Source of the DNA: Candidatus Woesearchaeota archaeon
Lineage (GTDB): Archaea > Nanobdellota > Nanobdellia > Woesearchaeales > SKIA01
Reading direction: 5' to 3'
DNA length: 64,000 bases
NCBI GenBank assembly: GCA_046704725.1
Contig: JBJKRI010000002.1
Span: 18,285 to 82,284 of the forward strand
Position numbers and translations under genes: made by a program. This document shows positions 15,459-59,911 of this stretch, in pieces. The stretch's first letter is position 1, and each line of letters begins with the position of its first letter. The notes beneath the pieces are model-generated. The model was not told where the DNA came from. It searched no databases and saw only the letters and a list, made by a program, of their open reading frames with translations.

Positions 15459-15459
15459 A

Positions 15460-29909: not shown

Positions 29910-29911
29910 AG

Positions 29912-30544: not shown

Positions 30545-30567
30545 ATCTTGGCCGAGAGCGGCGCCCC

Positions 30568-31290: not shown

Positions 31291-31795
31291 TCTCGGCGTC
31301 TACGACGTCGTGCTGCCCTTCTTGCTCGTCTTCACCTTGATGTACTCGATGCTCGAGAAGACCAAGGTATTGGGCACCTATAAGGAGGAGGCCAAGCACA
31401 GCCTCAACGCCATGGCCGCCTTCGTCACGGGCTTCCTGGTCATCGCCTCCACGCAATTGGTGCGCACCATCAACACGGTGCTCGCCGACAGCGTCCTCCT
31501 GCTCTTGCTCTCCGTGCTCTTCTTGATGCTCGTGGGCAGCTTTCAGGGCTCGGACGAGTTCAAGCTCAGCGGCACGTGGAAGAACATCTTCATGGTCATC
31601 ATCTTCGTGGGTCTCCTGCTCATCTTCCTCAACGCGTTGGGTTGGTTGCAGGCGGCCTGGAACTACATGCTCGGTAATCTGGACGGGCCGATCGTGGGCA
31701 GTTTCGCCCTGCTCGTGGTCGTCATCGGCGGCATGGTCTGGCTGACCAAGCCGCCCGGGGACGGCAAGCCCAAGGGAAACAAGGACAAAAGTTAA
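31253..31795 (+). CDS. small polytopic membrane protein (paralog 1 of 3)
   Basis: MSVFQNAIAFFVNLGVYDVVLPFLLVF... Start at an internal ATG with a TTTAAATA box about 30 bp upstream. Confidence 0.5.
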   Translation: MSVFQNAIAFFVNLGVYDVVLPFLLVFTLMYSMLEKTKVLGTYKEEAKHSLNAMAAFVTGFLVIASTQLVRTINTVLADSVLLLLLSVLFLMLVGSFQGSDEFKLSGTWKNIFMVIIFVGLLLIFLNALGWLQAAWNYMLGNLDGPIVGSFALLVVVIGGMVWLTKPPGDGKPKGNKDKS

Positions 31796-31823
31796 TTAAA
31801 GGGAGGATTGGAGGAGAACACGT

Positions 31824-32447
31824 ATGATCGTCGCGGATTGGATTGTCTGGTTGCAGAGCATCGGTTTGGGAGACGTCATCATCCCGTTCTTCCTCGTCTT
31901 CGCCATCGCGTTCGCGGTGCTCACGAGGAGCAAGATCCTCGGCGAGCCGAGGGTGGCCAAGAAGTTCAACGCGATCATCAGCCTCGCGCTCGGCTTCGCC
32001 GTCGTGGTCCCGCACATCCTCTGGGGTAACCCGAACCCCGCGAACCCGTACCTCGCCACCGGTATGGTGGATATCGTCAAGCTCATCAACAACAGCCTGC
32101 CCCAGGTCGCCGTCGTCATCGTCGGCATCATGATGCTCTTGCTCATGATCGGCGCGTTCGGCGTGCGCTGGAAGGTCGGCGAGAGCGGCGTCGGACCCAT
32201 CGTCGTCATCGCGAGCATCGCGATCGTCGTCTACATCTTCGGCACGAACGCCGGCTGGTTCAACCACGGTCGGTTCCCGCCATTACTGTATTGGTTATCG
32301 AATCCCCAGACAGCGATGCTGCTCGTCACGCTCCTCGTGTTCGGCGTGATCATGTGGCTCATCACGCGTGATGACGAGCCCAAGCCAAACCAGAAATCGT
32401 TCATGGAGAACATGAAGGAAATGTTCAAGACGGAGGACTATAAGTAG
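31824..32447 (+). CDS. small polytopic membrane protein (paralog 2)
   Basis: MIVADWIVWLQSIGLGDVIIPFFLVF...; same architecture as 31253 and 32454. Confidence 0.5.
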   Translation: MIVADWIVWLQSIGLGDVIIPFFLVFAIAFAVLTRSKILGEPRVAKKFNAIISLALGFAVVVPHILWGNPNPANPYLATGMVDIVKLINNSLPQVAVVIVGIMMLLLMIGAFGVRWKVGESGVGPIVVIASIAIVVYIFGTNAGWFNHGRFPPLLYWLSNPQTAMLLVTLLVFGVIMWLITRDDEPKPNQKSFMENMKEMFKTEDYK

Positions 32448-32453
32448 AGGATC

Positions 32454-33089
32454 ATGGCGACGGTCCTCGACTTCAGTATCCTCGGCAGCCTCTCGGTAGT
32501 CTTCGTCTTCCTCGCGGTCTTCATCGGCGCTTGGGGATTGCTCAGCACGACCGACATGCTCGGTCTCAAGGACAAGAAGAGCGTGTACGCCGTGCTCGCG
32601 CTGGCCATCGCTTTCCTCGTCGTCCTCTCGCAGAACGTCCTCAACCTGGTGGCGTTCACCATGCCGTGGTTCGCCGTCCTCACCTTCGTCGGCTTCTTCA
32701 TGCTCTTCTTCGCGAAGATGTTCAATCCGAACCTCAACGGCGCAGAGCTCATCAGGAAGAGCGAGGTGCATGGTTTCCTCATCTTCTTCACGGCGATCAT
32801 CGTCATCTTCGGCCTCGCGAACTCCTTCGGGCAGCAGCTCCTCGAGAAACAACCAGGAGTGACGACGGCCGACCAGATATCGGGCAACACGATGCCGACG
32901 AACACGTTCGTCCCCGTCAATCAATCGAGCGCGACCAACGCCTCGAACACGGCGTCGACCACCGCGCCCAGCACCGGCAATATCGGTTCGAACATAGTGC
33001 TCACTATATTCAATCCGAAGATACTGGGCATGCTCTTCATGATGTTGCTGGGCACGGTCACCATCCTGCTCATCGCGCGCAACAACTGA
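32454..33089 (+). CDS. small polytopic membrane protein (paralog 3) with S/T/N-rich loop
   Basis: MATVLDFSILGSLSVVFVFLAVF... Confidence 0.5.
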   Translation: MATVLDFSILGSLSVVFVFLAVFIGAWGLLSTTDMLGLKDKKSVYAVLALAIAFLVVLSQNVLNLVAFTMPWFAVLTFVGFFMLFFAKMFNPNLNGAELIRKSEVHGFLIFFTAIIVIFGLANSFGQQLLEKQPGVTTADQISGNTMPTNTFVPVNQSSATNASNTASTTAPSTGNIGSNIVLTIFNPKILGMLFMMLLGTVTILLIARNN

Positions 33090-33299
33090 TATCGGTGAGA
33101 ATTCTCCGGAGGGTCAGCGGCTCTTGCGTTCCATCTTCTCGGTGATGTCCGACAACTGCTTGACGTTGTCGGTGAACACCGGCAAGACCTTGCTGAACAC
33201 TTTTTCCATCGCCTTGATCTCGGCGCCGACCTCGAGGATGTTCTTGTCGTAGGTCTCGATCTTGCCGATGAGAGCGGCTTGCAGTATATCGAAGCGGTC

Positions 33300-33731
33300 C
33301 TAGAGGTCAGCGACTACCTGTGATAATGTGGTGAGCCGCTGCTCGGAACGGTTCTTCCAATCGACCACTTTCTGGATGTCTCCTTCGAGCTCCGCCCATT
33401 TCTCGTCGATGATGGCCTCCACATACTCTTCGGTGGACACGTCGACAGAGCCGTGCGACGGGGGCGCCATCGGCGGGGATTGCGGGCTCATCTGCGGTGC
33501 CATGGGCTCTGCGGCCATGGGCGGCGGAGCCGGTTCTGAAGGCGGTGCGCCCGGCGCTGGCGGTGCATCAGGCATCCCGCCGTCGGGCGTGCTCGCCTGG
33601 TTGAGCGCGTCGAAGATCTGCGATGAGGAGTAGCCGTCGTGCTGGAGCACGTCGATGACCTGGCTGTTGGTGTAGCCTTGCCCCTTGAGCTGCTGCACCT
33701 TTGCTGTGGGGATGTCGTCTGCCATGCTCAC
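33300..33731 (-). CDS. coiled-coil protein with Pro/Ala-rich linker
   Basis: 143 aa. The coding-like reading frame continues for 61 more codons past the TAG at about 33300 (see findings). Confidence 0.45.
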   Translation of the reverse strand: MSMADDIPTAKVQQLKGQGYTNSQVIDVLQHDGYSSSQIFDALNQASTPDGGMPDAPPAPGAPPSEPAPPPMAAEPMAPQMSPQSPPMAPPSHGSVDVSTEEYVEAIIDEKWAELEGDIQKVVDWKNRSEQRLTTLSQVVADL

Positions 33732-33765
33732 CTCTGTATTCCAATCCGGCCGCTCGTTTAAAAAG

Positions 33766-34131
33766 TTATCTTGCCTGTTCCAGGAGTCGCTGGGCCTCTT
33801 CCCGCGTCAGGTAGCGCACGGGGTCCCACATCTCGAGGTACTTGCGCAGCACCAACACCTCTTGGCGGGGCGCCGCCCCCTTCACCTCCTCGAGGAAGCG
33901 GTCCATCTTCTCATCTATCTCGAGCAGCTTGCGGTAGAGCGCTTTCACGTCCTCCGCCAATCGCGCCAACTCGTTGCGCAAATCCTTCTCGGCGGCGATG
34001 AGGTTCTCGTCCGTCAATTGCCCTTTCCGTCGCAGGACGGTGTATCGCTCCTCGAGCACGCGCATGCGCCGCGACAGGTCCGACAGTCCCTGCGCGAACG
34101 GCGAGGGTCCCTGCACGGGTTTCTGGGCCAT
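33766..34131 (-). CDS. coiled-coil protein
   Basis: 121 aa, heptad-rich and coding-like. Confidence 0.4.
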   Translation of the reverse strand: MAQKPVQGPSPFAQGLSDLSRRMRVLEERYTVLRRKGQLTDENLIAAEKDLRNELARLAEDVKALYRKLLEIDEKMDRFLEEVKGAAPRQEVLVLRKYLEMWDPVRYLTREEAQRLLEQAR

Positions 34132-34522
34132 GCCCTTCCTGCTCGATATCGCTTCTTAAAGCTGCCGGAAGCCACAAGAACACGGCCCTCGTCCTGCCGG
34201 CATGGAACGCTGCGTCGTGGATGGTTGCGCAAACCCTCCGCTCTATCGGTTGTCTTTCCAGTACCGTGTCTCCGGACGCATCGAGATCGAGCATCTCGCG
34301 GTCTGCAAACACATCTTGCACATGGTGCGCCCGTGCATCTCTGGCATGCCCGTGAGCGCCTCGTACCTCTCATCGCGGACCACCGCTCCCGAGGCGCTCC
34401 GGACCATCGAGGAACGCGTCTCGTCGATGACTGAACGCGAGAAGGGCTATCTCGGAAAGCACATGCCCCTGCGCCGGAACGCTTAAAAGGCATCCTGGCG
34501 AGGAACGGATGGAAGAGGGAGC

Positions 34523-36820
34523 ATGGCGACAGGATTCTCGTACGAGGTGGTCCGACAAGGGCAGGATACCATCCTGCTCGTGGACGCGGAGAAAGCGCTC
34601 ATCGTCCCGAGCATCGAGGACAATCCCGAGTGCATGGCCGAAGCGGTCGACCAGCTCGTGGAGAACAGGGGTGTCACCAAGATCGTCTACACGCAGAAGC
34701 AGGACTACGAGTATCCCTACGACCAGACCCAATTGCTCGCCGAGCTCGCGAAGACGTACCGCGTCCTCGTCCACGAGAAGCACGCGACATACCAGGCCTT
34801 GCAGGTGCCGGGCATCTCCGAACAGGTCGCGAGCCAGCGCTACGCCTTCCTGCAGGATATCATCCACAACGAGCTCACGCGCGACCCCCTCGGCGCGTAT
34901 CTCTTGCTCCGCCGCGAACAGCGAAAAGCCACGATCGCGCGCGACAAGAGCATCAGCGACGCCGACGAGAAGGGATGGAAGGTCTATATCACCGCATTGG
35001 AGCGCATCATGGGATTGCTCGAGAAGACCGCGCTCATCCAGCAGGTCAAAGACCAGCTCGAAGGGGTGTCGGTCGGCGACCGTTCCTTGTACCGCAAGGT
35101 GTTCTTCCCGCAGATCAAGCCCGACTTCATGTTCACCAAGGTCATGGCGCAGTACCCGCGCGGCGGTCAGGAGGTGGATTCCTACGCCGTCGGCGAGACC
35201 GAGGTCGTCGTCTTCAAATTGCCGGACACCGTGCAGTACCTCTATCACGTCACGCCCCCCGAGTTCAAACTGCCCGAGGAGCAGTACGACCTGCTCGACA
35301 CCGCGCGCAAGATACTGTCCGAGCACAAGCCTACCGAGGACGACTTCGTCGACCCCGAACGCATGCGCGACGTCTTCGCGAACGTGGGCAGCGACCTGCT
35401 CGAGGAGCTCGCGCTCAAGCGCGACATGGAACTGTCCGAGGAGGAGCTCGAGAAGCTCACGCGCATCCTCATCCGCTACACCGTGGGCTTCGGGCTCATC
35501 GAGGTCCTCCTGGAGGACCCGCGCATCCAGGACATCACCGTGAACAGCCCGACCGGGCGCACGCCCATCTATCTCGTGCACGACACCTACGAGGATTGCC
35601 TGACCAACATCCTGCCGACGATCCCCGAGGTCGAGTCGTGGGCGTCCAAGCTCCGCATGATCAGCGGCCGGCCCCTCGACGAGGCCAATCCCGTGTTGGA
35701 CGCGGACATCACGATCCCTGGCGCCGCGAAAGCGCGTGTCGGCGCCATCGGACGACCGTTGGATCCCGGCGGGCTCGCCTTCGCCTTCCGACGACACCGC
35801 GACAAGCCATGGACGTTTCCGTTGTTCATCGACAACGGCATGATCAGTCCCCTCGCCGCCGGACTGCTCTCGTTTCTCATCGACGGCAACCGCACCTTCC
35901 TCATCGCCGGCACCCGCAGCGCGGGCAAGTCATCGCTCCTGGGCAGCTGCATGGTTGAGATCATGCGCAAGTACCGCATCATCACCATCGAGGACACCCT
36001 CGAGCTTCCCGGACCGCAGTTGCAGGACCTGGGCTTCAACCTCCAGCAGATGAAGGTCGCCTCCGCGTTGGCCAAGGGCTCGTCGGAGGTCCCTGCGGAC
36101 GAGGGCATCAGAACGACGTTGCGCTTGGGCGACAGCGCTCTCATCGTGGGCGAGGTGCGCAGCGAGGAGGCCCGCGCCCTCTACGAGGCCATGCGTGTCG
36201 GCGCGTTGGCCAACGTGGTCGCGGGCACTATCCACGGCGACAGTCCCTACGGTGTGTACGACCGCGTCGTCAACGACCTGCGCGTGCCGCGGACCAGCTT
36301 CAAGGCCACCGATATCATCGTGGTCGCGAACCCTGTCCGCTCGGCCGACGGCCTGCATCGTGTGCGTCGCGTCACCGAGATCGCCGAGGTGCGAAAGCTT
36401 TGGGAGGAGGACCCGCTCGAGGAGAACGGCTTCGTCTCGTTGATGCGCTACAATCCGGAGACGGATACCCTCGAGCCGACCGACGCGCTCATCAACGGCG
36501 AGTCCGAGATCATCAAGGCCATCGCCGGCGCGGTGCGCGAGTGGGCTGGTGATTGGAGCGCGGTCTGGGAGGAGATCCAGCTGCGTGCGGAGCAGAAAGC
36601 GATGATCGTGCAGGCGGCGCGCGACGACAACGAACCGTCGTACCTGGAGGCGCCTTTTGTCATCGCGGCCAGCGACGCGTTCCACCGCATCAGCGAGGAG
36701 GCCCGCGCGCAGTCGAAAGAGAATGTATCGGAGAGGATAAAGCGTGAGTTCACCATATGGCTCGAAAGGGCGCGGCAGCAGCCTCGACAACCTGAAGCAA
36801 GAAGTCGAGCAGCGGCTTAA
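34523..36820 (+). CDS. type II/IV secretion system ATPase, FlaI/PilB/GspE family (archaeal pilus or archaellum-type), 765 aa
   Basis: Walker A LIAGTRSAGKSSLLG. Asp/His box IVGEVRSEE. Long N-terminal extension. Confidence 0.8.
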   Translation: MATGFSYEVVRQGQDTILLVDAEKALIVPSIEDNPECMAEAVDQLVENRGVTKIVYTQKQDYEYPYDQTQLLAELAKTYRVLVHEKHATYQALQVPGISEQVASQRYAFLQDIIHNELTRDPLGAYLLLRREQRKATIARDKSISDADEKGWKVYITALERIMGLLEKTALIQQVKDQLEGVSVGDRSLYRKVFFPQIKPDFMFTKVMAQYPRGGQEVDSYAVGETEVVVFKLPDTVQYLYHVTPPEFKLPEEQYDLLDTARKILSEHKPTEDDFVDPERMRDVFANVGSDLLEELALKRDMELSEEELEKLTRILIRYTVGFGLIEVLLEDPRIQDITVNSPTGRTPIYLVHDTYEDCLTNILPTIPEVESWASKLRMISGRPLDEANPVLDADITIPGAAKARVGAIGRPLDPGGLAFAFRRHRDKPWTFPLFIDNGMISPLAAGLLSFLIDGNRTFLIAGTRSAGKSSLLGSCMVEIMRKYRIITIEDTLELPGPQLQDLGFNLQQMKVASALAKGSSEVPADEGIRTTLRLGDSALIVGEVRSEEARALYEAMRVGALANVVAGTIHGDSPYGVYDRVVNDLRVPRTSFKATDIIVVANPVRSADGLHRVRRVTEIAEVRKLWEEDPLEENGFVSLMRYNPETDTLEPTDALINGESEIIKAIAGAVREWAGDWSAVWEEIQLRAEQKAMIVQAARDDNEPSYLEAPFVIAASDAFHRISEEARAQSKENVSERIKREFTIWLERARQQPRQPEARSRAAA

Positions 36821-38864
36821 CCAGGAGCTCGGGGAGGCGCAGGAGGTATCGAGCAAGGAGTACGTGGAGTTCAAGCGCGACAACGTGCCGATCCATCACT
36901 CCTTGTACGAGCGTGCCTGCCGATTCGCCGGCAAGACCCTGCCGATATCCGGCGGCAAGCGCGAGAAGGATATCGCGGCGTACCTTGCCGCGGCGCACGT
37001 GGATTGCAGGCCGGGCGACACCGTCTCGCTCGCGCTGCTCGCGCCTATCGTCGTGGTGTTCTTGAGCATCGTCCTCACCGTCTTCGTCCCGTACTCCCTT
37101 GGCGGCAGCCTGTCGTCGTACTGGTTGTTGTTCTCTCTCATCCTCGGCGTGATGGCCTACATTCCCCTCAAGAACATGCCGCAGTTCCTGGCCATGCGCT
37201 GGCGCCAGCAGGCCTCGAACCAGATGGTCATCGCGGTCTTCTACATCGTCACGTTCATGCGTCACACCCCGAACCTCGAGCTCGCGCTCGAGTTCGCCGC
37301 CGACCACATCGGCGCTCCCCTCGCATTGGACCTCAAGAAGGTGCTCTGGGACGTCGAGACCGAGCGTTTCCAGTCCGTGACCGAGAGCCTCGAGGATTAT
37401 CTCGTGCAGTGGCGCGACGACGCGCGCGAATTCATCGAGGCATTGCACCTCGTGCAGTCCTCCTTGTACGAGACCTCGAACGACCGCCGCCTCTCCAGCC
37501 TGGACAAGTCTCTGGACGTCATGCTCGAGGAGACCTATGAGAAGATGCTGCACTACGCCCAGGACCTGAAGGGGCCCATGACCATGCTGCACATGCTCGG
37601 CATCGTGCTGCCCATCCTCGGCTTGGTCATCCTGCCGCTCGCCGTCTCCTTCTTCGAGACGAGCTGGACGATCATCTTCAGCTTCTACAACATCATCCTG
37701 CCCTTCGCGGTCTACTACCTTGGAAGGCGCATCCTCGCCACGCGCCCGACGGGCTACGGCCAGTCGGACATCGCCGCCGCGCAGCTCAATACCGCGAAGA
37801 AGAAGTTCGCGTCCCCCGCCTTCAAGGCCTTCGCCCTCGCGGCCGTGCTGTTATTCATCGGCGTCTCGCCCCTCATCATCCACGCCGCTTCTCCCACCTT
37901 CGACGCGCACATCGGCAACTTCAAGCTCCTCGGCTACCAGAACGAGAACGGCGTCTTGAAAGGGCCTTTCGGCCTCGGCGCCGGCTTGCTGTCCCTGCTC
38001 GTCACGCTCGCCGCCGGTCTGGGCCTGGGCATGTTCTACCGCTCGCGCGCCAAGGACCTCATCAAGCGGCGGGACGAGACGCGTCGGCTCGAGAGCGAGT
38101 TCGCTTCGGCATTGTTCCAGCTCGGCAACCGTATCGGCGACGGATCGCCTTCGGAGATCGCCTTCTCGAAGGTGGCGGCGGTCATGGAGGGGACCACCGC
38201 GGGCCGCTTCTTCGCGCTCGCCTCGAACAACATCACCTCGCTCGGCATGGGCGTGAAGGACGCCTTGTTCGACCCGCACCGCGGCGCGGTCACGCAGTTC
38301 CCCTCCGCCCTCATCGAGTCGAGCATGAAGGTGCTCGTCGAGTCGAGCAAGAAAGGCCCCGTCGAAGCCTCGAAGGCGTTGATGAGCATGTCCAATTACA
38401 TCAAGGAGATGCACCGCGTGGACGAGCGGCTCAAGGACCTCTTGTCCGACGTGCTCTCGAGCATGAAGAGCCAGATCAACTTCCTGCTCCCGACCATCGC
38501 GGGCATCGTCATCGGCATCACGAGCATGATCACCACCGTGCTCGGCGCGATCCACACCCAGGAGCAGCAGCTCGGCAGCACGGGCGGGGCCGGTTCCTCT
38601 TCCCTGGGTATCGGCTCGAACCTCTTCCATCTCGGTGTGCCCACGTATTTCTTCCAGATCGTCGTTGGCTTGTACGTCGTGCAGGTCACGTGGATACTCG
38701 CGTACCTCATCAACGGTGTGGAGAATGGCATCGACCCCTTGTCAGAGGATTGGACCCGCGGCAAGTCTTTGCTGTACGCGACCATCCTCTACACGGTCAT
38801 CGCGCTCGTCATCATCCTCATCTTCAACGTGATCGCCGGCCAGATCATGTCGAGCCTCGGCTGA
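36744..38864 (+). CDS. FlaJ/TadC-like (T2SS F domain) polytopic platform membrane protein
   Basis: 706 aa with multiple transmembrane helices and two cytoplasmic helical domains. Directly follows and overlaps the ATPase gene. Confidence 0.7.
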   Translation: MSSPYGSKGRGSSLDNLKQEVEQRLNQELGEAQEVSSKEYVEFKRDNVPIHHSLYERACRFAGKTLPISGGKREKDIAAYLAAAHVDCRPGDTVSLALLAPIVVVFLSIVLTVFVPYSLGGSLSSYWLLFSLILGVMAYIPLKNMPQFLAMRWRQQASNQMVIAVFYIVTFMRHTPNLELALEFAADHIGAPLALDLKKVLWDVETERFQSVTESLEDYLVQWRDDAREFIEALHLVQSSLYETSNDRRLSSLDKSLDVMLEETYEKMLHYAQDLKGPMTMLHMLGIVLPILGLVILPLAVSFFETSWTIIFSFYNIILPFAVYYLGRRILATRPTGYGQSDIAAAQLNTAKKKFASPAFKAFALAAVLLFIGVSPLIIHAASPTFDAHIGNFKLLGYQNENGVLKGPFGLGAGLLSLLVTLAAGLGLGMFYRSRAKDLIKRRDETRRLESEFASALFQLGNRIGDGSPSEIAFSKVAAVMEGTTAGRFFALASNNITSLGMGVKDALFDPHRGAVTQFPSALIESSMKVLVESSKKGPVEASKALMSMSNYIKEMHRVDERLKDLLSDVLSSMKSQINFLLPTIAGIVIGITSMITTVLGAIHTQEQQLGSTGGAGSSSLGIGSNLFHLGVPTYFFQIVVGLYVVQVTWILAYLINGVENGIDPLSEDWTRGKSLLYATILYTVIALVIILIFNVIAGQIMSSLG

Positions 38865-38875
38865 ACCCACGTTCC

Positions 38876-39001
38876 ATGCTCCTTATATACAGGTGTTTAC
38901 ATAAGGTGTACGTGGCTCGATGCGCGCGTTGCGGACGCCTCGATGACGAGGAAGCGATTCCCGGGGTGCCATACTTCTGCGAGGACTGCGCGGAGGACTA
39001 G
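38876..39001 (+). CDS. tiny 4-Cys zinc-ribbon protein
   Basis: CARC...CEDC; about 41 aa inside track ORF 38690..39001. Confidence 0.2.
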   Translation: MLLIYRCLHKVYVARCARCGRLDDEEAIPGVPYFCEDCAED

Positions 39002-39453
39002 TCCCAGGCCTTGTTGAGCTTCCGCATCAGGATGAACGCTCCGAGATGGTAGGCGTTGTGCTGCGCCACGATGAACAGGCAACGCAGAACGGTGTGCTTC
39101 TCGCTGCTCGGCACTCTTTCCTCGAGGTCGGCTTGTTTCGCGATCTCGATGAGCTTCTCGCGGTCCCTCTTGAATGCCGCGATGGTCTGGTCCCAGGTGG
39201 CTTGGTCCGCTTCTCCCTCCGGCCAGTAGTCCGCGGGCCATGATCGCCCCTCGTAGTCTTTCTTCGTGATGTAGTCGAGCATGTCCTCTTGCGCCCTGCG
39301 CATGTGCTCGAGCAGTTGCCAGAACGTGTACTCCACGTTCGGCGCTCCCTCGTTGTACAATGCCGGTGGAAGGTCCTCGACGGCTTTGTCGAACGGCGCG
39401 TGCGCCCCCTTGCTCTCCAACATCCTGACGAGCTGTTCTCGGAGTTCTTCCAT
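38998..39453 (-). CDS. DinB/YfiT-like (DinB_2) family protein
   Basis: 151 aa, ...FWQLLEHMRRAQED...AYHLGAFILMRKL... four-helix pattern. Confidence 0.65.
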   Translation of the reverse strand: MEELREQLVRMLESKGAHAPFDKAVEDLPPALYNEGAPNVEYTFWQLLEHMRRAQEDMLDYITKKDYEGRSWPADYWPEGEADQATWDQTIAAFKRDREKLIEIAKQADLEERVPSSEKHTVLRCLFIVAQHNAYHLGAFILMRKLNKAWD

Positions 39454-39576
39454 GTGTACCGCATATGCTATGATGCCTTAAACCTTCTGGAGAATGGGCT
39501 CGCCCGGATTGCTCGCATCCGAAGGATGCGATGCCGCAAGGACCTCGGTCCGTAGCGCTTCGAATCCGAAGAGCGA

Positions 39577-39648
39577 TGGGCTCGCCCGGATTCGAACCGG
39601 GGACAACCCGATCTTCAGTCGAGTGCTCTCCCGCTGAGCTACGAGCCC
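39577..39648 (-). tRNA. tRNA-Phe (anticodon GAA)
   Basis: Reverse complement GGGCTCGTAGCTCAGCGGGAGAGCACTCGACTGAAGATCGGGTTGTCCCCGGTTCGAATCCGGGCGAGCCCA folds as a cloverleaf (7-bp acceptor, GCTC/GAGC D-stem, anticodon loop CTGAAGA, TTCGAAT T-loop). No encoded CCA. TTTTAAA box about 27 bp upstream. Confidence 0.85.
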
Positions 39649-39668
39649 GTACGCCTGCGGAACAGGCT

Positions 39669-39678
39669 GCGCCTTTAA
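39669..39678. promoter_or_regulatory. TATA-like box (TTTTAAAGG) for tRNA-Phe
   Basis: Position -27 relative to the tRNA 5' end on the minus strand. Confidence 0.5.
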
Positions 39679-39736
39679 AAGGTGTTCGTCTGCGCAAATC
39701 CGAAAAGCATTCAAATGCCCGCTTGTCGCCAACCAT

Positions 39737-40558
39737 GTGGACTTCAAGCCGCTGGACCGGTACATCGACAAGCATCAGTTCGATCCCGAGCTGGAGATCG
39801 CGTACGGCAGGCGCGAAAAGGACGATCGGATCGTCGAGAAGTTGGCGGCCCCGCACCTGCCCCTTGCTATTAGTTTCGCCCATAGCTATTCGCGCCGCGG
39901 TTATCACGATCTCGAACAGGATCTTGAACAGGTGGCGATGATGGCGTTGTACGAGGCTGCGTGGAAGTATGACGGAAGGGGAAAGTTCACCTCATATGCC
40001 ATGTGGTTCGTGCGAAAGAACATCTTCAACTGCATCAATGACGCAGGCCGGACCGTGCGGGTTCCGCGTAACGTCTATTCAATCCTACGCAAGAGTAGAC
40101 GCCTTTTCGACGCAGAGATCGCGAAGGGTAAGAATCGGTCTGAAGCGCGCGCCGTGATCGCCGGCAGAATCAAGAACGAAGCCATCGTGGAGATGGTCGT
40201 TTCGGGAACGGGCATTCAGAGTCTTGACGCGCTTGCCTACTCGGATGGCACGCAGACGCGTCTTGATAACCTCGCGGATTCGGGGCCCGGTCCTGTCAGA
40301 CGGTTATTCCGCGGCATCAGGAATGAGGATCTCGCAATCGCGCTCCAGCGGGTCGAGGAGAGGGGAGAGCCTCATTCTCGCTACATCCGGGTCATACGCA
40401 AGTACTACAATCTTGATGGTGATGGCGACTTCACGCTTAAACGAATCGGGAGCATGCTTGGCCTGACTGAGGACCGCGTGCGGCAGCTGCGCAACAAGGG
40501 GCTGCGGGCATTGCGGCCGATTCTCGAAGAGATGGGCTATGACCGTGCGGCGGCCTGA
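39737..40558 (+). CDS. sigma-70 family RNA polymerase sigma factor (FliA/group-3-like size, 273 aa)
   Basis: Region 2 DLEQVAMMALYEAAWKYDGRGKFTSYAMWFVRKNIFNCI aligns with the consensus DLIQEGNLGLMKAVEKFD..KFSTYA.WWIRQAI. RTVRVPRNVY also matches. Region 4.2 TLKRIGSMLGLTEDRVRQLRNKGLRALR. Confidence 0.85.
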   Translation: MDFKPLDRYIDKHQFDPELEIAYGRREKDDRIVEKLAAPHLPLAISFAHSYSRRGYHDLEQDLEQVAMMALYEAAWKYDGRGKFTSYAMWFVRKNIFNCINDAGRTVRVPRNVYSILRKSRRLFDAEIAKGKNRSEARAVIAGRIKNEAIVEMVVSGTGIQSLDALAYSDGTQTRLDNLADSGPGPVRRLFRGIRNEDLAIALQRVEERGEPHSRYIRVIRKYYNLDGDGDFTLKRIGSMLGLTEDRVRQLRNKGLRALRPILEEMGYDRAAA

Positions 40559-40894
40559 CTACTCTTCGTCGTCTTCGCTCTTCTCTTCGGCTTCGGGCTC
40601 TTCGGAGCCGTCCGCCTTCTCGAGCGAGCCGTAGCGTCCAGCGGTCAGTTGCTTGTCGCCTTGCCACTCGTTCACGTAGCCGTTGACGACCTTGACCACG
40701 TCGCCGACCTTGAAGCGGTCCACGTCCTCGTTCCATAAGGTGAGGATGATCTTTCCCGAATCGTCCTCGAGCACGCTGTTGGCGACCTTGCCTGGCCGGC
40801 CGAATTTCTGGAATTCCCTCGCGGGAGATATCTCGAGGATCTTGCCCTCGACGTTCACGTTACCTTGTTTGGGCTGCAATTCACTGATTTTCAC
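40559..40894 (-). CDS. OB-fold nucleic-acid-binding protein with acidic C-terminal tail
   Basis: ...VEGKILEISPAREFQKFGRPGKVANSVLEDDSGKIILTLWNE... OB pattern with a terminal EEPEAEEKSEDDEE. Confidence 0.5.
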   Translation of the reverse strand: MKISELQPKQGNVNVEGKILEISPAREFQKFGRPGKVANSVLEDDSGKIILTLWNEDVDRFKVGDVVKVVNGYVNEWQGDKQLTAGRYGSLEKADGSEEPEAEEKSEDDEE

Positions 40895-41161
40895 TGCCGA
40901 TCACCTGTCGGGGCGAGAGTCATGCCATATATAAGTGTTCTCGCAGGGACTTTTTCGGTCTTTCCAACTATTCGGTCCGTATCATACAAGAAAGTGTATG
41001 GCGCAAGCCCATGCGCAAACGAGCCCCTGTATACTTCGACAATCCTTTGAAGCGGCCGTATTCTGACTGTCCGTACAGTAGGTTTATAAGCGAATATGAC
41101 TTCCCGGCCCAAACGGTGTGACCACTCGCCGGTTGCGTGGGTTGCATTGGGGGAATGGTTC

Positions 41162-44100
41162 ATGGGGAACAATAGTCATACAACACACACACGTCTCGCT
41201 CTCACCGCTCTTCTCATCCTCGCTTCGCTGGGCTTCGCGCTCGGCGCCGCCGGACAGGCATCGGCCGCCGTCTTCGTGCCGCTGCCGTTGCAGGTCGGCC
41301 CTGGACAGCAGTACCACAGCATCCAGGCCGCCATCGACAACGCCTCGAACGGAGATACCATCGATGTCGCCCCCGGCATCTATAATGAAACCCTGACCCT
41401 CGACAAGAACCTCACCCTCCTCGGCAACCAGAACGGTATCCCCGCCTGCGGTCGCATCGCCACAGAGACCATCATCAACGCTTCCAGCGGCAACCTCCTC
41501 ACCCTCCAGGGAGGCAGCGCAGGCTCGGTCATCGACGGCTTCACCTTCATGGGCGGCAACAAACAACTCCAATCAACGAGCGGCCCCATCGACGACGTCC
41601 AGATCCTCAACAACCGCTTCGTCGGTTTCACCGGATCCGCGATCTTCCTCAATGACCAGGGCAAGGATATCACCATCCATCAGAACTCCATTGACGGTTC
41701 TTCGACCACCGGGTCGGGCGGGATGCTCCACCTCGATACCGATAGTTTCTCCGGGATGCAGATCACGAACAATTGCCTGTTCAACGCCTCGGGCCGGACA
41801 GGATTGTTCGTGGACGGCAGCAACAATGTCGATCCGAGCGCCGACCGGAACCCGCTCATCGCCAACAACCTGTTCGACGGTCTGGACACCGGGGCGAACC
41901 TCGGACACAACGCTTTCACCGGTGGCGACATCACGAACAACACCTTCAGCAACAACGAGTATGACGGCCTGCAGGGCGGCATACAGCACACGACCATCTC
42001 GTTCAACAAGTTCCACGACAACGGACGCTTCGGAATCGATCTGACGAGCTTCGGCAGCACCAACGTGAATCGTGGCGCGCAGTACGCGAACGTCGTGGAG
42101 AACGACTTCTCCGGCAATGGCTTCTCACACGACGGCGCAGGTATTATACTGAGCAACGGCCAGGCATCAGGCACCATCGCCACGAATGTCGTGCACGAGA
42201 ACAACATCACCGGCAACAGGCAAGGAGCGATCTATACCGGCTCCGAGAGCGTCGACCTCATCCATAACTGGTGGGGAGACGCCACCGGCCCGTCCGGCGA
42301 CGGACCTGGCACCGGAGACGCTGTCAGCGGTTCGAACATCGAGTATGACCCGTGGCTGTGCAGTCCTGCGTTCACCTCGAACATCAGCATCAACGGAACC
42401 TGCGCGCAGCCCCAACCCTCGTGCACCGAAGTCCCGAAGGAATGCAGCGAGCGCACCTATCCGCTTAATGCGCTTGCCGGCGTCCACCATGGGGACCACG
42501 TCCAGGAGGACCGCTCCAACGATCCTAGCACCGGAAACAACCCGTACGACTTCTGCGGGCCGATGACCTTCACGATCCCCTCGACCATCCACACCACCAA
42601 CGGCCTGAGCCCGGATCAGTGGATCACGCTCCAGTTCAGCAACTCGACCGACAACGTCACCTGCGTCTACCACGACTCGAGCTCGCACCACGACCACGGG
42701 AGCAGCCAGCACTGGGACCTCGTCGGGTGCTACGCGGACTACAACGGTGCGACGCCGCCTGACCAGAGTTCCATCTATAAGGGAGGCGACAGCATCTCCG
42801 CCACGCATGTCCAGCTCAACATCACCGGCCAGAAACCTGAGGGCAGGGCGAACGCCCACGTGAACCTCAAGTCCGTCTGCGGTGATCCGACGCCCTCCTG
42901 CCAGCAGCCTGTCACGTGCGAGCAGGCGGTCCAGCAGGGCCTTCTCTGGGCGGACATGAACAGCGACGGCAGCGCGGTCATCCACAACAATGCGAACACG
43001 ACCTTCGAGGTCGGCATCGCGTCCTATAATATGTACAACAGCCTCAACGACCTCGGCGGCTGGGGGCTCGACACGCAGACCCTCTATGATTACATGCTCG
43101 CGAACGTGAGCAAGCAGAGCACATCGGAGCTCAACGTGGAGATCCCTGAGTGCAAGGCACAAGTGGACGTCTTCTGCTTCAACACCACCGAGAACAGCCC
43201 CATCACGCACTTCAACCAAGAGAACGGCACGTGGTACCATGGCGTGGGCAACTTCATCAACTCCACCTTCGTGGGCGAGAGCTACTGCACGAACCAGACG
43301 ACTCCGTCGTGCCAGCAGAATACCACGACGACTATCATCGTGAGCGATAACCAGGCCATGGTGAACGGCACCAACGCCGTCCCGACATGGGTCTCGACCG
43401 AGTATTGGTCGGCCGTGATCCCGAACGCGACGTGGATCTGGAGCTCGTACTACGTGCAGGACCCGCGCAACGGCGCGGTCAAGAACTTCACCCGTACTTT
43501 CACACTGCCCGGCAACGTGACGGACGCGAACCTCATGATCGCGGTGGACGACTACTATCGCGTCTGGTTGAACGGCAATCTCATCGTCACGAACAACGAT
43601 CCCAACAACTTCAGATCCAGCGGGCAGGACTATCTCGACAACTTCTCGTCCTACCTGCATCCGGGAAGCAACACGGTGGTGTTCGAGGTCACGAACATGG
43701 CGGCGAATACCGACAGCCCGACGGACAATCCTGCTGGACTGCTCTATCGCCTGAACATCACGACCGACACCTGCGGTGGCGGCAACGGACGTTCCTACTG
43801 CGGCGACGGTATCATCAACCAGGAGACCGAGCAGTGCGACGGCAGCGCCCCGGCGGGCTACACCTGCACGAACGAGTGCACGCTCGAGAGAAAGCCGTTG
43901 TTCACCTGCAACGGCGACATCGCCTACCTGGACACCGCTGCCTCCAATCAGAGCGTCCTGTATTCCGTGAACACGACGACCGGTATCGGCACGCTCAGCC
44001 ATGTCTTCCCTGAGGCGATGCGCAGCGTCGTCGCGGCGGACCACAACGGCACGCTCTACAGCATGCTGCCCAACGGCAGCAACACTGGCGATCTGATTAT

Positions 44101-47100
44101 CCTGCGCGCGGACGGCACGATCGAGCACGTCGGCCCGACCGGTCTTTCAGGCAACACCGTCGCTATGGAGTTCGCTCCCAACGGAACGCTCTATGCGATG
44201 AACGAGAACACGAACCACCTGTACGAGATCAATACCGACACAGGCCATGCCACCTATCTGCATACGTTCATGCCCGACTCGCTCGGAGTGAGCGGTGGTG
44301 ACCTTGCGGTCATGCCCAACGGCACACTCATCTACCTGCGCGCGGACGGCAACGTCTACGGCATCGACCTCAACAACAACTACACCACGACGCTGCTGGG
44401 CACGCTCGGCGGGAGCAGCTTCACGAGCCTCGGCTACGTGAACGAAACGTTCTACGGCCTCAGCCGCACCAATGACGGCCTGTACCGCTTCACGCTCGAC
44501 CCGTTCAACGGATCGCTCGTGGCGAGCAACGTCGGACCGTTCGACTTCGGTGATGCGACCACATGCCCCGCGCCCGTACAGCAGCCGACCGACCCGGTCA
44601 AGCCCATCCTCGAGTGCGTGAACGCGTACGGCGAGGGTAACTACACCGCGTACTTCGGTTATCTCAACCAGAACAGCGTGAACATCACCATCCCGATCGG
44701 CAATGAGAACAAGATCACCGGCGGCGGCCTGTCCGGTCAGGACCAGGGCCAGCCCACGGTCTTTACGCCCGGGCGCACGCCGTACTATCCGAACGCGTCG
44801 TTCAGCGTGAACTTCGACGGCACGAACATGGTCTGGACCCTCAAGGGTCCTGACGGCTCCACGCGCACATCCACCGCGAGCGCGAACAGCAAGGCCTGCA
44901 CGCCCATCTGCGGCGACGGTATCGTCGAGGCTGGAGAGCAGTGCGACGGCAGCGCCCCGAAGGGCTTTGTCTGCACGCCTGACTGCCAGCTCAAGGTCGA
45001 CACCCAGTCCGTCTGCGACCCGAACATCCAGCTCGTGAGCAACGGCGGCTTCGAGACGCCGGCTCTCGCTTCCGGAGAGTGGGATATCTTCCCGAACGGG
45101 ACGGCCGGGCTCGACTGGAACGTCGCGTGGGCCACCAATATCACGAGCTTCGGCGGTCACACGCGCCCCACCCTGGCGAACATGGAGATCCACAACAATG
45201 TCGCTGGACAGGGTGTGAACAACACGCAGTACACCGAGCTCGACAGCGACTGGTTCGGTCATAACCTGAGCCTGACGGGCAACCCTGCATCCGTGAAGAT
45301 CTGGGAGGACCTCAAGACGATGCCGAACGCGACCTACAACATCAGCTTCGCGTTCAGCCCGCGCCCGGGCACGGACGCCGCGAACAACGACCTCCTCTTC
45401 TACTGGAACGGCCATCTGGTCGACACGATCAGCGCGGACGGCTCGTCCCTGAAGACCACGGACTGGAAGTTCTACAACTACTCGCTTGTCGCGACGAGCA
45501 ACGTAACGCCGATCATGTTCGTTGACAACGGCACGCCCGACGGTCTCGGAACGTACCTCGACGCGGTGAGCACCACCTGCAGCACGCCAGCGCCAATCTG
45601 CGGCAACGGCATCATCGAGCGCGGAGAGACCTGCGATGACGGCAACAACGTCAGCGGAGACGGCTGCTCCTCGACCTGTCAGATCGAGAACGCCTGCCTG
45701 GTCCACGGCCAGACGAACACGAGCTACTACAACTCCTCATACAAGGAGTGGTACTTCTGGCACTACACGCCGGACAACTCGTCCGCGACCACGCGCTTCG
45801 TCTTCGGTCCGGGAACGCCGCTCAACAACGGCAGCGCCCAACTCGGCGTCGACCACAAGAGCCGCGCGGCGATCCTGACGAACATGTATTCCGGCACGAT
45901 GCTCCGTGACATCCAGACGTTGAAGTACAGCACGTACAACAGCACTCCTGACGGTTGGACCGTTCCGTTCATGATGCCGGCGTACACGAACGTCAGCACC
46001 GCCAACTCGTCGAAGTATCCCCAGCTGTTCTTCCAGCCCGGTCTCGCGTACAACGTGACCAACAACACCTGGCAGACGTGGGACGCGCTCTCGAACACGA
46101 GCCGTGGCTGGTACTTCATGGGATGGAACAGCAGCCGCGACTGCTCGCTCGCGCACCCGTGCACCTTCAACGAAGTGCTCTCTAACTTCCCGGACGCCGG
46201 CGGTATCAAGTGGCATCCTGAGATGGGCTTCGAGCTCGGATTCTGGGGAACGCATGACTTCACGGGCTATGTGGACAACTTCACGATTTCCACCAACAAG
46301 ATCTGCGAGCTCAACGACTTCGAGCCCACCGCGTACTGCGGCGATGGCATCGTCAACCAGCCGTCCGAGCAGTGCGACGGCAGCGCTCCCGCCGGCTGGA
46401 CCTGCACGCAGCAGTGCCAGTTGCAAGCGCCTGTGATCCCCATCTGCAACGCGACGCAAATCGTCCAGAACGGCGGCTTCGAGTCTCCGCTCGTGAACAC
46501 GAGCCAGGACTGGAACATCTTCCCTGACGGCACGGCAGGTCTTGTCTGGAACGTGAGCTGGCACAGCAACCAGACCACGTACAAGAACGAGACGCGTCCT
46601 GCCATCGCCAACGCTGAGCTCCAGAATCTCTATCCGGCCGAGAACGGCAGCCAGTACGCCGAGCTCGATAGCGATTGGGACGGCCCCACCGGCTCCCTCA
46701 CTGGCGAGCCGGCGAGCGTCACGATGAGCCAGGTCCTGCCGACCATCGCGGGCGACCAGTACGACGTCGCCTTCAGCTTCAGTCCGCGCCCGAACACGCC
46801 CGCGTCCGACAATGTCCTCGTCGTGAGCTGGGAGGGCAGCCCTGTGGATGTCATCAGCGCCGCCGGCGGTTCCTCGGTCAACTGGACGACATATCACCTG
46901 CATCTCAACGCGACGATGAACGGCTCTGAACTCTCGTTCACCGACAACGGTACGCCCGACAGCCTAGGCACGTTGCTCGACGGCGTCTCGGCGGTCTGCC
47001 AGCCCCGCGAACCCTACTGCGGCAACGGCATCGTCGATCCCGGCGAGCAGTGCGACGGCAGCGCCCCCAAGGGCTTCACCTGCACCTCTAACTGCACCAT

Positions 47101-50100
47101 CGAGGTCCACACAGAGGAGATCCCGCCCCTGTTCACCTGCAGTGAGGGCATCCTGTTCTTGGACACCGCGCCCTCGAACGAGAGCCGCCTGTATACCGTG
47201 AACACGACGACGGGCATCGGCACGCTCAGCCATGTCTTCGGTGAGGCGATGCGCAGCGTCGTCGCGGCGAACGACAACGGCACGCTCTACAGCATGCTGC
47301 CCAACGGCAGCAACACGGACGGCCTGGTCATCCTGCACGACGACGGCACGATCGAGAACATCGGTCCGACCGGCTTGCCGGGCAACACCGTCGCCATGGA
47401 GTTCGCGCCTGACGGCACGCTCTACGCGATGAACCAGAACACGAACGGCCTGTACAGCGTCGACGTCAACACAGGTCACGCGACCCTGCTCCACACCTTC
47501 GCTCCGGGAGTGCAGGGCGGCGACCTCGCTGTCACGCCCGACAACATGCTCGTCTACCTGCGCTCGGACGGCAAGGTGTACGGAGTCGACCTCAACGACA
47601 ATTACACGACGACGCTGCTCGGCAGCATCGGTTGGAGCGGTTTCACGAGCCTCGGTTACGTGAACGGTACGTTCTACGGCCTGTCGTTCAACGACAACCG
47701 CATGTACAGCTTCACGCTGGGTCCGTTCGACAGCTCGCTCGTGGCGAGCAAGGCGGGTCCGTTCGCCTACGGCGATGCCACCTCGTGTCCCGCGCCCGAG
47801 CCGCAGCCCTACGTGTGCGAGCCCGGAACACAGCTGTTGACCAACGGCGGCTTCGAGTATCCGGTCGTGAACAACTCTGCGGAGTGGGATATCTATCCGA
47901 GCGGCACCTCTGGCCTTGGCTGGAGCGCGGCCTGGGTCCCCGGACCGAACACCTACCAGAACGAGACGCGGCCTGATGTCGCGAACGTCGAGCTGCAGCA
48001 CGACGTGAACGGCTGGCTCGCCAAGCAGGGCGAGCAGTACGCCGAGCTCGACAGCGACTGGTACGGTCCCAACGACAGCGTCTCGGGAGAGCCCGCGAAC
48101 AGCATCATCTCGCAGACGGTCCCGACCGCCCTCAACGGCAGCTACCACTTGACCTTCGCCTTTAGCCCGCGCCCCGGTTCGCCCGCGAGCACGAACACGC
48201 TCCAGGTGTATTTCGGCGGACAGCTCGTCGCGAACATCACCGCGAACGGCACGAACCAGACGGACTGGACGACGTACGGCTATAACCTCGTCGCGAACTC
48301 CTCGAACACGACGCTCTCGTTCGTCGCCAACGGCACGTCAGACAGCCTCGGCACCTTCCTCGATAACGTCAGCCTGACGTGCGGCTCCACCGAGCCCGTG
48401 TGCGGCAACGGCGTGCTCGAGCAGGGCGAGCAGTGCGATGACGGCAACAATGTCAGCGGCGACGGCTGCTCTGCGACCTGTCAGATCGAGACGCCGCCTC
48501 CGGTGTGCGAGCAGCAGAACGTCACAACCCTCATCGTGAGCGATAACCAGACGATGGTCGACGGCCACAATGCGGTCCCGACGTGGGTCGCAGGCCCGTG
48601 GACCTCGCTGCCCAACGCGACATGGATCTGGAACCAGACCTATGTGGCCGAGCCCCGTGACGGAGAGACGCACAACTTCACGCGCACCTTCACCTTGCCC
48701 GGCAATGTGACCGGCGCATCCCTGCAGATCGCCGCGGACAACAGCTATCGCTTCTGGGTGAACGGCGCGCTCGTCGGCGCTGACCCGAGCCAGGACAACT
48801 ACGGCTCTGCGGACAGCTATACCAACGTGTCATCCTACCTGCACGCGGGTTCCAACACCATCGTCTTCGAGGTCGAGAACTGGGCGTGGCCAACGGACAG
48901 CCCGACGGTCAATCCCGCTGGACTGCTCTATCGCCTGAACGTCACGACCGATACGTGCGGCGGCAACGGACTGCCTGTCTGCACGCCGACGAACGTGACG
49001 CGCATGGAGGCGCCGTATCCCGCGAGCACCGTTGAGAGCGCCCATCAGGGCCTGACCCTCGGTGGACAGTCCGTGCGCCCGCAGCGCAGCAACCCGACGC
49101 AGGGTCTCGCGCTTGAGGACACGCATAGCGAGAGCGACTTCTATACGCTCGGCTTTGGCGGCAACATCACGGTCGGCTTCCATTACCCGGTCATGAACGG
49201 TCCCGGACCCGACGTGGGCGTCGTGGAGACGACATGGAAGACGAACAGCTACCCGAACGAGACCGCCGATGTCTACGCGAGCAACGACATGGTCGATTGG
49301 ACGTTCCTCGGTGTCGCCGACAACCACAACAAGTCGAACGGCGATTACACGATCAACACCTTCGACCTCGGAAGCATGCCCTACGCCAAGTATGTGAAGA
49401 TCGTGGACACGACGAACAAGTCCTTGTTCACGGGCAACAATGCGGCGGACGGCTTCGACTTGAACGCGGTCCTGTCCTTGCAGAACGACACCTATCCCGC
49501 TTGTCAAGAGCAGGGCGTTTCCACCTGCGAGCAGGCCATCCAGGACGGCAAGCTCTACGGCGCGATCGTGGACGGCACGGCCTACGTGTACAACAACGCG
49601 AGCCAGTCGTTCAACGTGAGCATGGTGTCGTATGGCGTATCCGGTCCAGCCTTGTCAGACCAGTCGCTCGTTGATTGGAGCACGCAGGTCGTGAACGGCA
49701 GCGGCAGCGCGCAATATCATGTGGACATCCCGGAGTGCGCCGCGCATGTGATGCTGGTCTGCGGCCATCCGCTCGAGGGCGATCCGCTCTATTACAACCG
49801 CGTACTCGACGAGCAGTACAACGAGGCGCCCTACTGTGGCGAGCAAGAGGGAGGGCAATCCCTCAAGCTGACGCTCTTGCCGGACTTCCCGGACAACGGT
49901 CGCTGGGAGTTCAGCTGCATGCCGACAGGATACACTCCGACGAACTATTCATGGGACTACGGCAACGGCGAGCACGCGACGGGCAACAGCTCGTACAGCC
50001 CGTTCCTGCCGGTGGTGACGTACAACAAGACAGGCCAGTACACGGTGACCTGCAACGCGACCGATGGATTCACGAATCTCACGGCCAGCATCCTGGTCAA

Positions 50101-53742: not shown

Positions 53743-54144
53743 TCAGGAAATGAGTTTCGCTCCTTTCAGTCCTGCGAAATCAGTGTCGCAGGTGAGCAGA
53801 CGCGCTCCCAGGGCGTCGGCCGTCATGAGCGCGAGCGCGTCGCCGTACGAGAACTTCTTGCGTTTCTTTCTCGCTTCTGTATAGAGCCTGGACGCGTTGA
53901 TGGCGAGTTCTGCGTCGACGGGCATGACATGCATCTGGTCGAGGGTCGCGCGAGCGACGAGCTCGTCGTCAGCGCCCGTCCTTCGCGCATGCACGCACAC
54001 CTCCATGATGTTGAATGCGCACATCGTCGCTCGTTTGTGTGCGATCTCTTTCTCGACGTGCGCCCCTTTCGTTGTTCCCCGCAGGTATTCGATCCACGCG
54101 GATGCATCCAAGACGATGTCTTTACGTGTACTTGGATTGGGCAT
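53743..54144 (-). CDS. vapC: PIN-domain toxin
   Basis: ...KDIVLDASAWIEYL... Start at an internal Met; the track ORF extends to 54201. Confidence 0.7.
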   Translation of the reverse strand: MPNPSTRKDIVLDASAWIEYLRGTTKGAHVEKEIAHKRATMCAFNIMEVCVHARRTGADDELVARATLDQMHVMPVDAELAINASRLYTEARKKRKKFSYGDALALMTADALGARLLTCDTDFAGLKGAKLIS

Positions 54145-59878: not shown

Positions 59879-59911
59879 TGCGGTGAAACTTTCGGTGCTT
59901 AACTGTATTTC

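Follow-up and report, generated by a model that had tools for sequence, protein, structure and literature searches.

What is a gene for a bacterial-type sigma-70 factor doing in the chromosome of an archaeon, and what could its product do there? The question is raised by a stretch of 64,000 nucleotides of contig JBJKRI010000002.1 (positions 18,285 to 82,284 of the forward strand) from a Candidatus Woesearchaeota archaeon, hereafter called the window, in which an open reading frame (ORF) of the sigma-70 family lies at positions 39737 to 40558. Sigma factors on the one hand, and TBP and TFB on the other, are textbook markers of bacterial and archaeal transcription, respectively. The account favoured here, at a little better than an even chance as a whole, is that the gene was acquired horizontally, is expressed in the archaeal manner and serves as an accessory transcription regulator.

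The ORF encodes a full-length bacterial-type sigma-70-family protein, which resembles RpoD and RpoS and comprises regions 1.2, 2 and 3, the 3.2 finger and region 4. Its parts are as follows, where amino acid positions (aa) are those of the protein and the predicted local distance difference test (pLDDT) scores are those of an AlphaFold2 model built on 92 homologues.

39737 to 40558, plus strand: sigma-70-family gene, encoding 273 aa from a GTG start, with a group 1/2-like architecture that lacks region 1.1.
39746 to 39814, plus strand: region 1.2-like N-terminal helices, aa 4–26, from the homologue alignment.
39824 to 40051, plus strand: sigma-2 domain, aa 30–105, from Pfam Sigma70_r2, with pLDDT of 88–97.
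40067 to 40204, plus strand: sigma-3 domain, aa 111–156, three helices preceded by RTVRVP (region 3.0).
40214 to 40291, plus strand: region 3.2 ('sigma finger') linker QSLDALAYSDGTQTRLDNLADS, which aligns with the SLDAP..D..L.D.LAD motif of the homologues.
40292 to 40531, plus strand: sigma-4 domain, aa 186–265, with the 4.2 helix-turn-helix LTEDRVRQLRNKGLRALR, from Pfam Sigma70_r4, with pLDDT of 86–98.

The GTG start is backed by region 1.2 homology from residue 4 onward, as the alignment with the homologue P0010 spans 4–266 versus 4–265. The sequence-only reading, in which the protein had been assigned to the sigma-70 family within an otherwise archaeal contig, had proposed a search of archaeal genomes with hidden Markov models of Sigma70_r2 and Sigma70_r4. 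The matches of the protein itself to both models exceed their cut-offs (PF04542, residues 38–105, 37.8 bits against 24; PF04545, residues 218–260, 33.9 bits against 24.1), as does the match to the NCBIfam sigma-70 superfamily model TIGR02937 (57.6 bits against 42.9), and every motif quoted in that reading is present. The NCBIfam models of RpoD, SigA and RpoS align to the protein nearly end to end, with scores far below their equivalog cut-offs. A PDB sequence search returned 71 sigma chains, the best of which were cyanobacterial SigA and RpoS, with E values of about 1e-18 over residues 16–269.

The AlphaFold2 model has a mean pLDDT of 86 and contains helical sigma-2, sigma-3 and sigma-4 domains; the region 1.2-like helices (4–12 and 17–26) are modelled at a lower pLDDT of 54–69. 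The sigma-3 assignment is based on the modelled helices at 111–129, 134–144 and 148–156 and on the full-length SigA and RpoS alignments, which span the region, whereas Pfam Sigma70_r3 (PF04539) gave no match to the protein at E ≤ 0.1. When the model was compared with the PDB by Foldseek, the best matches were sigmaS and sigmaA within holoenzymes, with a top template modelling score of about 0.53, and all 50 of the matches listed were bacterial sigma factors, the majority of them in RNA polymerase complexes.

The residues of the protein were compared with those of 92–156 homologues, using the residue numbers of E. coli sigma-70, which were checked against known landmark residues. At 50 family positions, conservation among the homologues is 80% or higher, and the protein keeps 34 of these (68%). 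In region 2.2, the equivalents of D403, L404 and Q406 are retained, and so are the residues for DNA melting and −10 recognition equivalent to F427, Y430, W433 and R436, the last three of which we take to be Y87, W90 and R93 of the protein. The RTVRVP motif of region 3.0 and the sigma finger, SLDA..D..L.D.LAD, are kept as well, with S162 and L163 of the linker retained in the homologue alignment. In the recognition helix of region 4.2, the equivalents of T583, R586, R588 and Q589 are kept, where R247, R249 and Q250 are the retained residues of the protein.

The core-binding motif EGNxG, which makes the main contact with the β′ clamp helices, is replaced by VAMMA (E407 to V, G408 to A, N409 to M, G411 to A), so that EGNxGL reads VAMMAL. 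The combination of EGN to VAM with G411 to A is unique among 157 sequences, namely the protein and the 156 homologues retrieved. Further substitutions are W434 to F, Q437 to K, R584 to E and E585 to D. The distribution of retained and changed residues indicates that the fold and most of the nucleic-acid-facing elements have been kept, and that the canonical interface with the bacterial core enzyme has been remodelled.

The contig that carries the gene is archaeal, specifically of Candidatus Woesearchaeota (DPANN), and high in GC. Archaeal markers in the window include an RFC-type AAA+ clamp-loader subunit (54409–55620), fibrillarin (59912–61141), aRF1 with eRF1 domains 1–3 (61647–62759) and a FlaI-type ATPase (34523–36820) followed by FlaJ. 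The context of aRF1, fibrillarin and FlaI/FlaJ given in the sequence-only reading is confirmed; its 'RFC large subunit' is verified as far as an RFC-type AAA+ protein, and its Nop5 has no Pfam match and is not confirmed. The sigma gene lies in the archaeal chromosome between a tRNA-Phe gene and the gene of an archaeal single-stranded DNA-binding protein (SSB), and its neighbours are as follows.

38998 to 39453, minus strand: DinB_2-family protein, the upstream neighbour beyond the tRNA (Pfam DinB_2, 53.6 bits).
39577 to 39648, minus strand: tRNA-Phe (GAA), divergent from the sigma gene (ARAGORN; Rfam tRNA, 68 bits).
40559 to 40894, minus strand: archaeal-type SSB/RPA-like protein with a single oligonucleotide-binding (OB) fold and an acidic tail (Pfam tRNA_anti-codon and Ssb-like_OB; NCBIfam PRK06461-type SSB).

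The sigma gene is 88 bp from tRNA-Phe, and the SSB gene, which corresponds to the acidic-tailed OB-fold protein noticed from the sequence alone, converges on it with abutting stop codons and a spacer of 0 bp. The foreign segment is exactly one gene. Woesearchaeota homologues are found on both flanks, namely FlaI and FlaJ upstream and part of a giant surface protein downstream, and the GC content around the sigma gene is 0.58–0.60, compared with 0.62 for the contig. The giant protein (41096–50509) is a secreted or surface protein of 3137 aa with internal duplications, and its real start is probably an internal ATG, which opens MGNNSH; its residues 2602–2795 align over 205 aa, at 38.5% identity, with a surface protein of 914 aa, which is encoded beside FlaJ in the locus of the closest Woesearchaeota relative (L003).

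A contig of an independent Logan assembly (run SRR31309759) covers positions 29737–44072 of the window gap-free at 99.94% identity, including all the junctions around the sigma gene. All eight differences fall at 33273–33316, about 6 kb from the gene. Because the second assembly is identical across every junction, the contig is not a chimera at the sigma gene. The 44-bp patch at 33273–33316 is an observation in its own right: six of the eight differing bases are A in the window, whose version puts a stop codon into the gene of a 203-aa coiled-coil protein (33114–33725, minus strand); the Logan contig has this gene intact. No copy that could be a template repeat occurs in the window, and the patch reflects either strain hypervariation or a local consensus error.

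Related loci were collected by a search based on FlaI with one genome per GTDB species, which gave 13 loci, all from metagenome-assembled genomes deposited as archaeal. Eight are titled Candidatus Woesearchaeota, and further titles are Nanoarchaeota (one), simply 'archaeon' (one) and 'uncultured Methanosarcinales archaeon' (two). The closest FlaI proteins are those of two Woesearchaeota genomes (CSBr16_4 and CSSed162cmB_258), at 75–76% identity, and their FlaJ proteins are about 61% identical. The conserved synteny that had been proposed as a check was not found: neither a sigma gene nor tRNA-Phe lies downstream of FlaJ in any of the 13 Woesearchaeota and Nanoarchaeota loci, and the synteny with them stops at FlaJ.

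In the 70 nt upstream of verified genes, a purine-rich stretch is followed by a TTTAWA box, with the motif beginning 30–37 nt before the start codon. This distance implies leaderless transcripts, and a purine-rich stretch and TTTAWA box with a leaderless start is the classic archaeal arrangement. Two such boxes lie between tRNA-Phe and the sigma gene.

39673 to 39684, minus strand: TATA box TTTTAAAG of tRNA-Phe (CACCTTTTAAAG on the minus strand), at −36 to −25 from the 5′ end of the tRNA.
39706 to 39717, plus strand: TATA-like box with TFB recognition element (BRE) of the sigma gene, AGCATTCAAATG, 31 nt before the GTG codon, which is the host register and implies a leaderless mRNA.

The sequence-only reading was correct in describing TATA boxes with leaderless starts, in that TATA-like boxes lie about 30 nt upstream of the genes, and in describing the sigma gene as divergent from tRNA-Phe. 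The palindromic TTTAAA box that it took to be shared between them belongs to the tRNA; since TTTTAAAG lies 26–33 nt from the tRNA 5′ end, in the host promoter register, this box is the tRNA's own promoter, and the sigma gene has a separate, weaker one. By a weight matrix built from 14 host promoters, the sigma box scores 7.9 bits, compared with leave-one-out scores of 6.8–16.6 bits for the host promoters themselves, and 1.7% of random 33-nt windows score as high. Promoter-like sites of the −35/−10 type recognized by sigma-70 are not enriched in the window (7 sites, compared with 4.0 ± 2.1 expected).

The GC content at third codon positions (GC3) of the sigma gene, 0.708, is the lowest when compared with verified host genes (0.80–0.92), and so is its index of the codon adaptation type, 0.475 compared with 0.59–0.77. 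Both values are still well above those of an alien low-GC island at 3.4–8.5 kb (GC3 of 0.54–0.57, index of about 0.32). The island itself (3409–8549; GC of 0.47 versus 0.62, GC3 of about 0.55 versus 0.85) is clearly a recent horizontal acquisition; among its products are PbeA (650 bits) and PbeC (385 bits), which belong to the Pbe/Dnd-related defence system, and a Schlafen AlbA_2 protein. It is followed at 9034–12209 by a C5 DNA methylase and a MutH/Sau3AI-like endonuclease of normal host composition.

From which part of the sigma family does the gene come? In a word-index search, the cluster of the protein at 90% identity consists of a single sequence. When 1.84 billion cluster representatives were searched exhaustively with HMMER, 27,920 sigma relatives were obtained, the best of which scored 108 bits, compared with a self score of 607, and were 33–37% identical; among about 15 billion proteins, none exceeds 37% identity. 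The named members of the top clusters are RpoD/SigA proteins of Gemmatimonadota and Latescibacterota, that is, short primary sigmas of FCB-group bacteria. Over the core region, the mean identity of the protein to the 92 homologues is 29%, whereas the minimum mean of the homologues among themselves is 32.5%. IMG/VR contains no relative of the protein, and JGI metagenome contigs gave a single match (L017), a bacterial SigA of the ordinary kind that is 30% identical to the protein. An archaeal sigma clade was sought among the top matches by way of the genomic contexts of seven homologues (P0010, P0021, P0040, P0023, P0100, P0126 and P0138), none of which is archaeal; the contexts are short contigs, look bacterial or, in one case, are phage-like.

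The short RpoD/SigA proteins of the FCB group, of about 285–290 aa, share with the sigma protein the length class and the 1.2-2-3-4 architecture, and likewise lack the long region 1.1 and the non-conserved insert; they are also the best sequence matches, at E values of 1e-21 to 1e-20. The sigma protein differs from them in falling far below the RpoD/SigA equivalog cut-offs, in having VAMMAL for EGNxGL together with the changes at W434, Q437 and R584, and in being encoded in an archaeon behind a BRE/TATA promoter. The best matches over the whole length by structure and by PDB sequence, sigmaS (RpoS) and cyanobacterial SigA in holoenzymes (for example 5ipl_F and 8h3v_G), have in common with it sigma-2, sigma-3, sigma-4 and the finger, with 25–27% identity in the structural alignments.

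Assignment to a known subfamily was tried and rejected in each case. As a primary sigma of the RpoD/SigA type (group 1), the protein scores 88.1 against a cut-off of 384.5 bits for TIGR02997 and 68.2 against 354 bits for RpoD_Cterm, and it starts at region 1.2. The two equivalog models for RpoS (group 2) give 76.5 against 378.7 bits and 74.3 against 394 bits. It is not a sigma factor of the extracytoplasmic function type (group 4), as it has region 1.2, sigma-3 and the 3.2 finger, and the models of groups 1 and 2 outscore those of groups 3 and 4. The score for MzaA, the sigma of the MZA anti-phage system, is 73.2 against 800 bits; the PADLOC match covers region 2 only, and no Mza partners are adjacent. 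Archaeal TFB, which together with TBP positions the archaeal polymerase at promoters (PMC7289017), is a functional analogue of sigma, as is eukaryotic TFIIB, and no homology to either was detected: Pfam gives Sigma70_r2 and Sigma70_r4 only, with neither a zinc ribbon nor cyclin folds.

Taken step by step, the favoured account is as follows. The sigma gene would have been acquired from the bacterial world by horizontal transfer, a step with good support, the nearest relatives being short primary SigA/RpoD proteins of FCB-group bacteria, and the transfer probably took place after the split from the closest sequenced Woesearchaeota. Horizontal acquisition, which had been proposed from the sequence alone, remains the best reading. 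With similarly good support, the gene is predicted to be transcribed now by the archaeal machinery from the host-type BRE/TATA box into a leaderless mRNA. It is proposed, tentatively and at somewhat less than an even chance, that the protein is no longer a canonical initiation factor and has been kept as an accessory transcription regulator. In that role, the helix-turn-helix of sigma-4, and perhaps sigma-2 too, could conceivably bind specific DNA, and the clamp coiled-coil of the archaeal RNA polymerase, which is universally conserved, is another possible partner. The role of a repurposed DNA-binding protein or anti-TFB factor, suggested from the sequence alone, is likewise conjectural. A non-canonical role is favoured because no bacterial core gene is seen in the window, the core-binding motif has been replaced and the −35/−10 sites are not enriched. 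In all of the 64 kb, neither genes of a bacterial core RNA polymerase nor an anti-sigma gene were seen. Signs of domestication or constraint are the intact ORF, the 34 of 50 conserved positions kept at an overall identity of about 29%, the preserved melting residues, RTVRVP, finger and 4.2 recognition helix, and the host-type box in register.

Several points weigh against this account. The promoter box of the sigma gene is weak, having a C inside the TATA element and a score at the low end of the host range. There is no orthologue, so that purifying selection within the archaeal lineage is unmeasurable, which is the main weakness of the account, and an unsampled donor could be the source of the pattern of constraint. 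An acquisition that is recent and still neutral would also agree with the atypical codon usage and with the absence from relatives. The finger and the melting residues are not needed by a simple DNA-binding regulator and hint at an activity associated with a polymerase. Finally, the window is 64 kb of the genome, and a bacterial-type polymerase or an anti-sigma factor could lie elsewhere.

The alternative that survives best, unlikely as it is considered to be, is that a sigma gene of bacterial or mobile-element origin was transferred recently and sits in the genome as a neutral passenger, functionless and as yet undecayed. It would account for a singleton without an orthologue that is missing from the related Woesearchaeota loci, for the lowest GC3 and codon adaptation when compared with verified host genes, for the degenerate core-binding motif, and for the lack of any bacterial polymerase or anti-sigma gene in the window. 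However, the full-length ORF is intact with 68% of the family-conserved positions kept, the gene is hemmed in closely by host genes, its end abutting the stop codon of the SSB gene (0 bp), and its promoter box is of the host type and in the correct register. Streamlined DPANN genomes, moreover, rarely keep useless genes.

It is considerably less probable that an archaeal virus or integrative element, inserted beside tRNA-Phe, left the gene as a relic or carries it as cargo, in which case the sigma-like protein would manipulate transcription in infection. The adjacent tRNA gene, the atypical codon usage, a match to the profile phrog_351 of 108.8 bits and the report of rpoS-like genes in DPANN viruses and in a single prophage (PMC12647753) would suit such an origin, as would the fact that an equally distant homologue, P0138, sits in a phage-like contig. 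On the other hand, the window contains no integrase and no partial tRNA copy of the attachment (att) type, which would hold the 3′ part of the tRNA; the neighbours have no PHROG matches, and the flanks consist of housekeeping-type genes. IMG/VR holds no relative, and phage sigmas are 27–30% identical to the protein, no closer than bacterial ones. The mobile-element or virus remnant suggested from the sequence alone thus finds no positive evidence in the window, where viral neighbours are likewise absent. As for P0138 itself (274 aa, positions 10001–10825 of the Logan contig SRR15221293_1794), it is encoded in a dense, co-directional contig of phage-like character, which also carries a dUTPase, a DNA ligase and a family-A DNA polymerase, and this context indicates that phage sigmas of such a length class exist at a similar distance from the query.

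Two further possibilities place the protein on the archaeal polymerase. In the first, which is about as improbable as viral cargo, the sigma has been re-fitted to the archaeal enzyme: region 2.2, as remodelled, would bind the clamp coiled-coil of Rpo1, which is the site used by TFE and Spt5, and the protein would act as an alternative factor for promoter specificity or opening. If this were true, bacterial and archaeal initiation systems would be combined in a functioning hybrid. The second, a true cross-domain initiation or specificity factor that works on the archaeal RNA polymerase alongside TBP, TFB and TFE, is slightly more doubtful still. In its favour, the protein keeps the 3.2 finger, Y430, W433 and region 3.0, which are relevant only in a polymerase-bound sigma, the clamp-helix interface motif is remodelled while the domain is not lost, and the promoter is of the host type. 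Such a factor has, however, no known precedent, and the flap-tip helix with which sigma-4 pairs is not known from archaeal polymerases. Sites resembling sigma-70-type promoters show no enrichment in the window, and a singleton distribution would be odd for a basal factor.

An assembly chimera, bin contamination or a bacterial contig, for which the bacterial-type gene in an archaeal contig and its somewhat lower GC3 might speak, is scarcely credible, as the independent Logan assembly agrees base for base across both junctions, the foreign segment is a single gene with archaeal genes and Woesearchaeota homologues on either side, and its surroundings are close to the contig in GC content. The chimera and the re-assignment to a bacterium, both raised in the sequence-only reading, are not supported.

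Other loci in the window deserve a brief description. The cysteinyl-tRNA synthetase is split into two ORFs, at 17004–17711 (profile positions 2–181) and 18367–19227 (profile positions 187–300, DALR and the anticodon-binding domain). The insert of about 650 bp between them contains a ParE-family toxin (17998–18258; Pfam, 33.5 bits) and a small antitoxin-like ORF upstream of it (17813–18001), so that an essential gene appears to harbour, or to be split by, a toxin-antitoxin cassette. Two PemK/MazF toxins, one of them with a MazE antitoxin, two PIN-domain proteins, a ribbon-helix-helix antitoxin-like protein and a stand-alone GIY-YIG nuclease are encoded at 485–1167, 14543–15894 and 53743–54201. 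A glycoside hydrolase of the trehalase family (26587–27780; Pfam Trehalase, 307 bits) is another likely bacterial-type gene in this DPANN genome. At 59076–61141, two long ORFs of the same strand, those of a ThiF-family protein and of fibrillarin, share about 540 nt; their Pfam domains lie in the non-overlapping parts, which makes it probable that the ThiF ORF has a spurious N-terminal extension. The fibrillarin ORF (409 aa) has an N-terminal part of 216 aa without a Pfam match.

The category to which the sigma gene belongs is already published. In 2021, Castelle et al. described sigma-70 genes of DPANN archaea as 'particularly prevalent in Woesearchaeota'; they ruled out mis-binning, saw no anti-sigma factors and did not settle the mechanism (PMC8204110), so that the novelty of the finding had been overestimated. 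Like the genes of that report (fam00359), the present one is a sigma-70-class gene among archaeal genes of a Woesearchaeota host, with no anti-sigma partner seen, and it lies on a contig with DPANN markers that is not mis-binned. The likeness is one of description; the protein has no relative above 37% identity and is no close member of any sampled clade. The rpoS-like auxiliary genes of DPANN viruses and of a DPANN prophage (PMC12647753) are likewise divergent, RpoS/RpoD-like and associated with DPANN hosts, whereas the present gene has no viral genes, integrase or att site around it.

The gene is one more sigma-70 gene of a kind already reported in Woesearchaeota, and what is new is this particular case, which is very divergent, is verified by a second assembly, has a promoter of the host type and shows remodelling in region 2.2. 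Its interest rests on the functional question and not on the existence of the gene. If a sigma gene is kept and expressed in an archaeon, one may ask whether an initiation factor of bacterial origin can find a new use, together with an archaeal polymerase or as a stand-alone regulator. With its archaeal promoter and altered core-binding motif, the present gene is a good candidate for the first biochemical test of archaeal sigma proteins.

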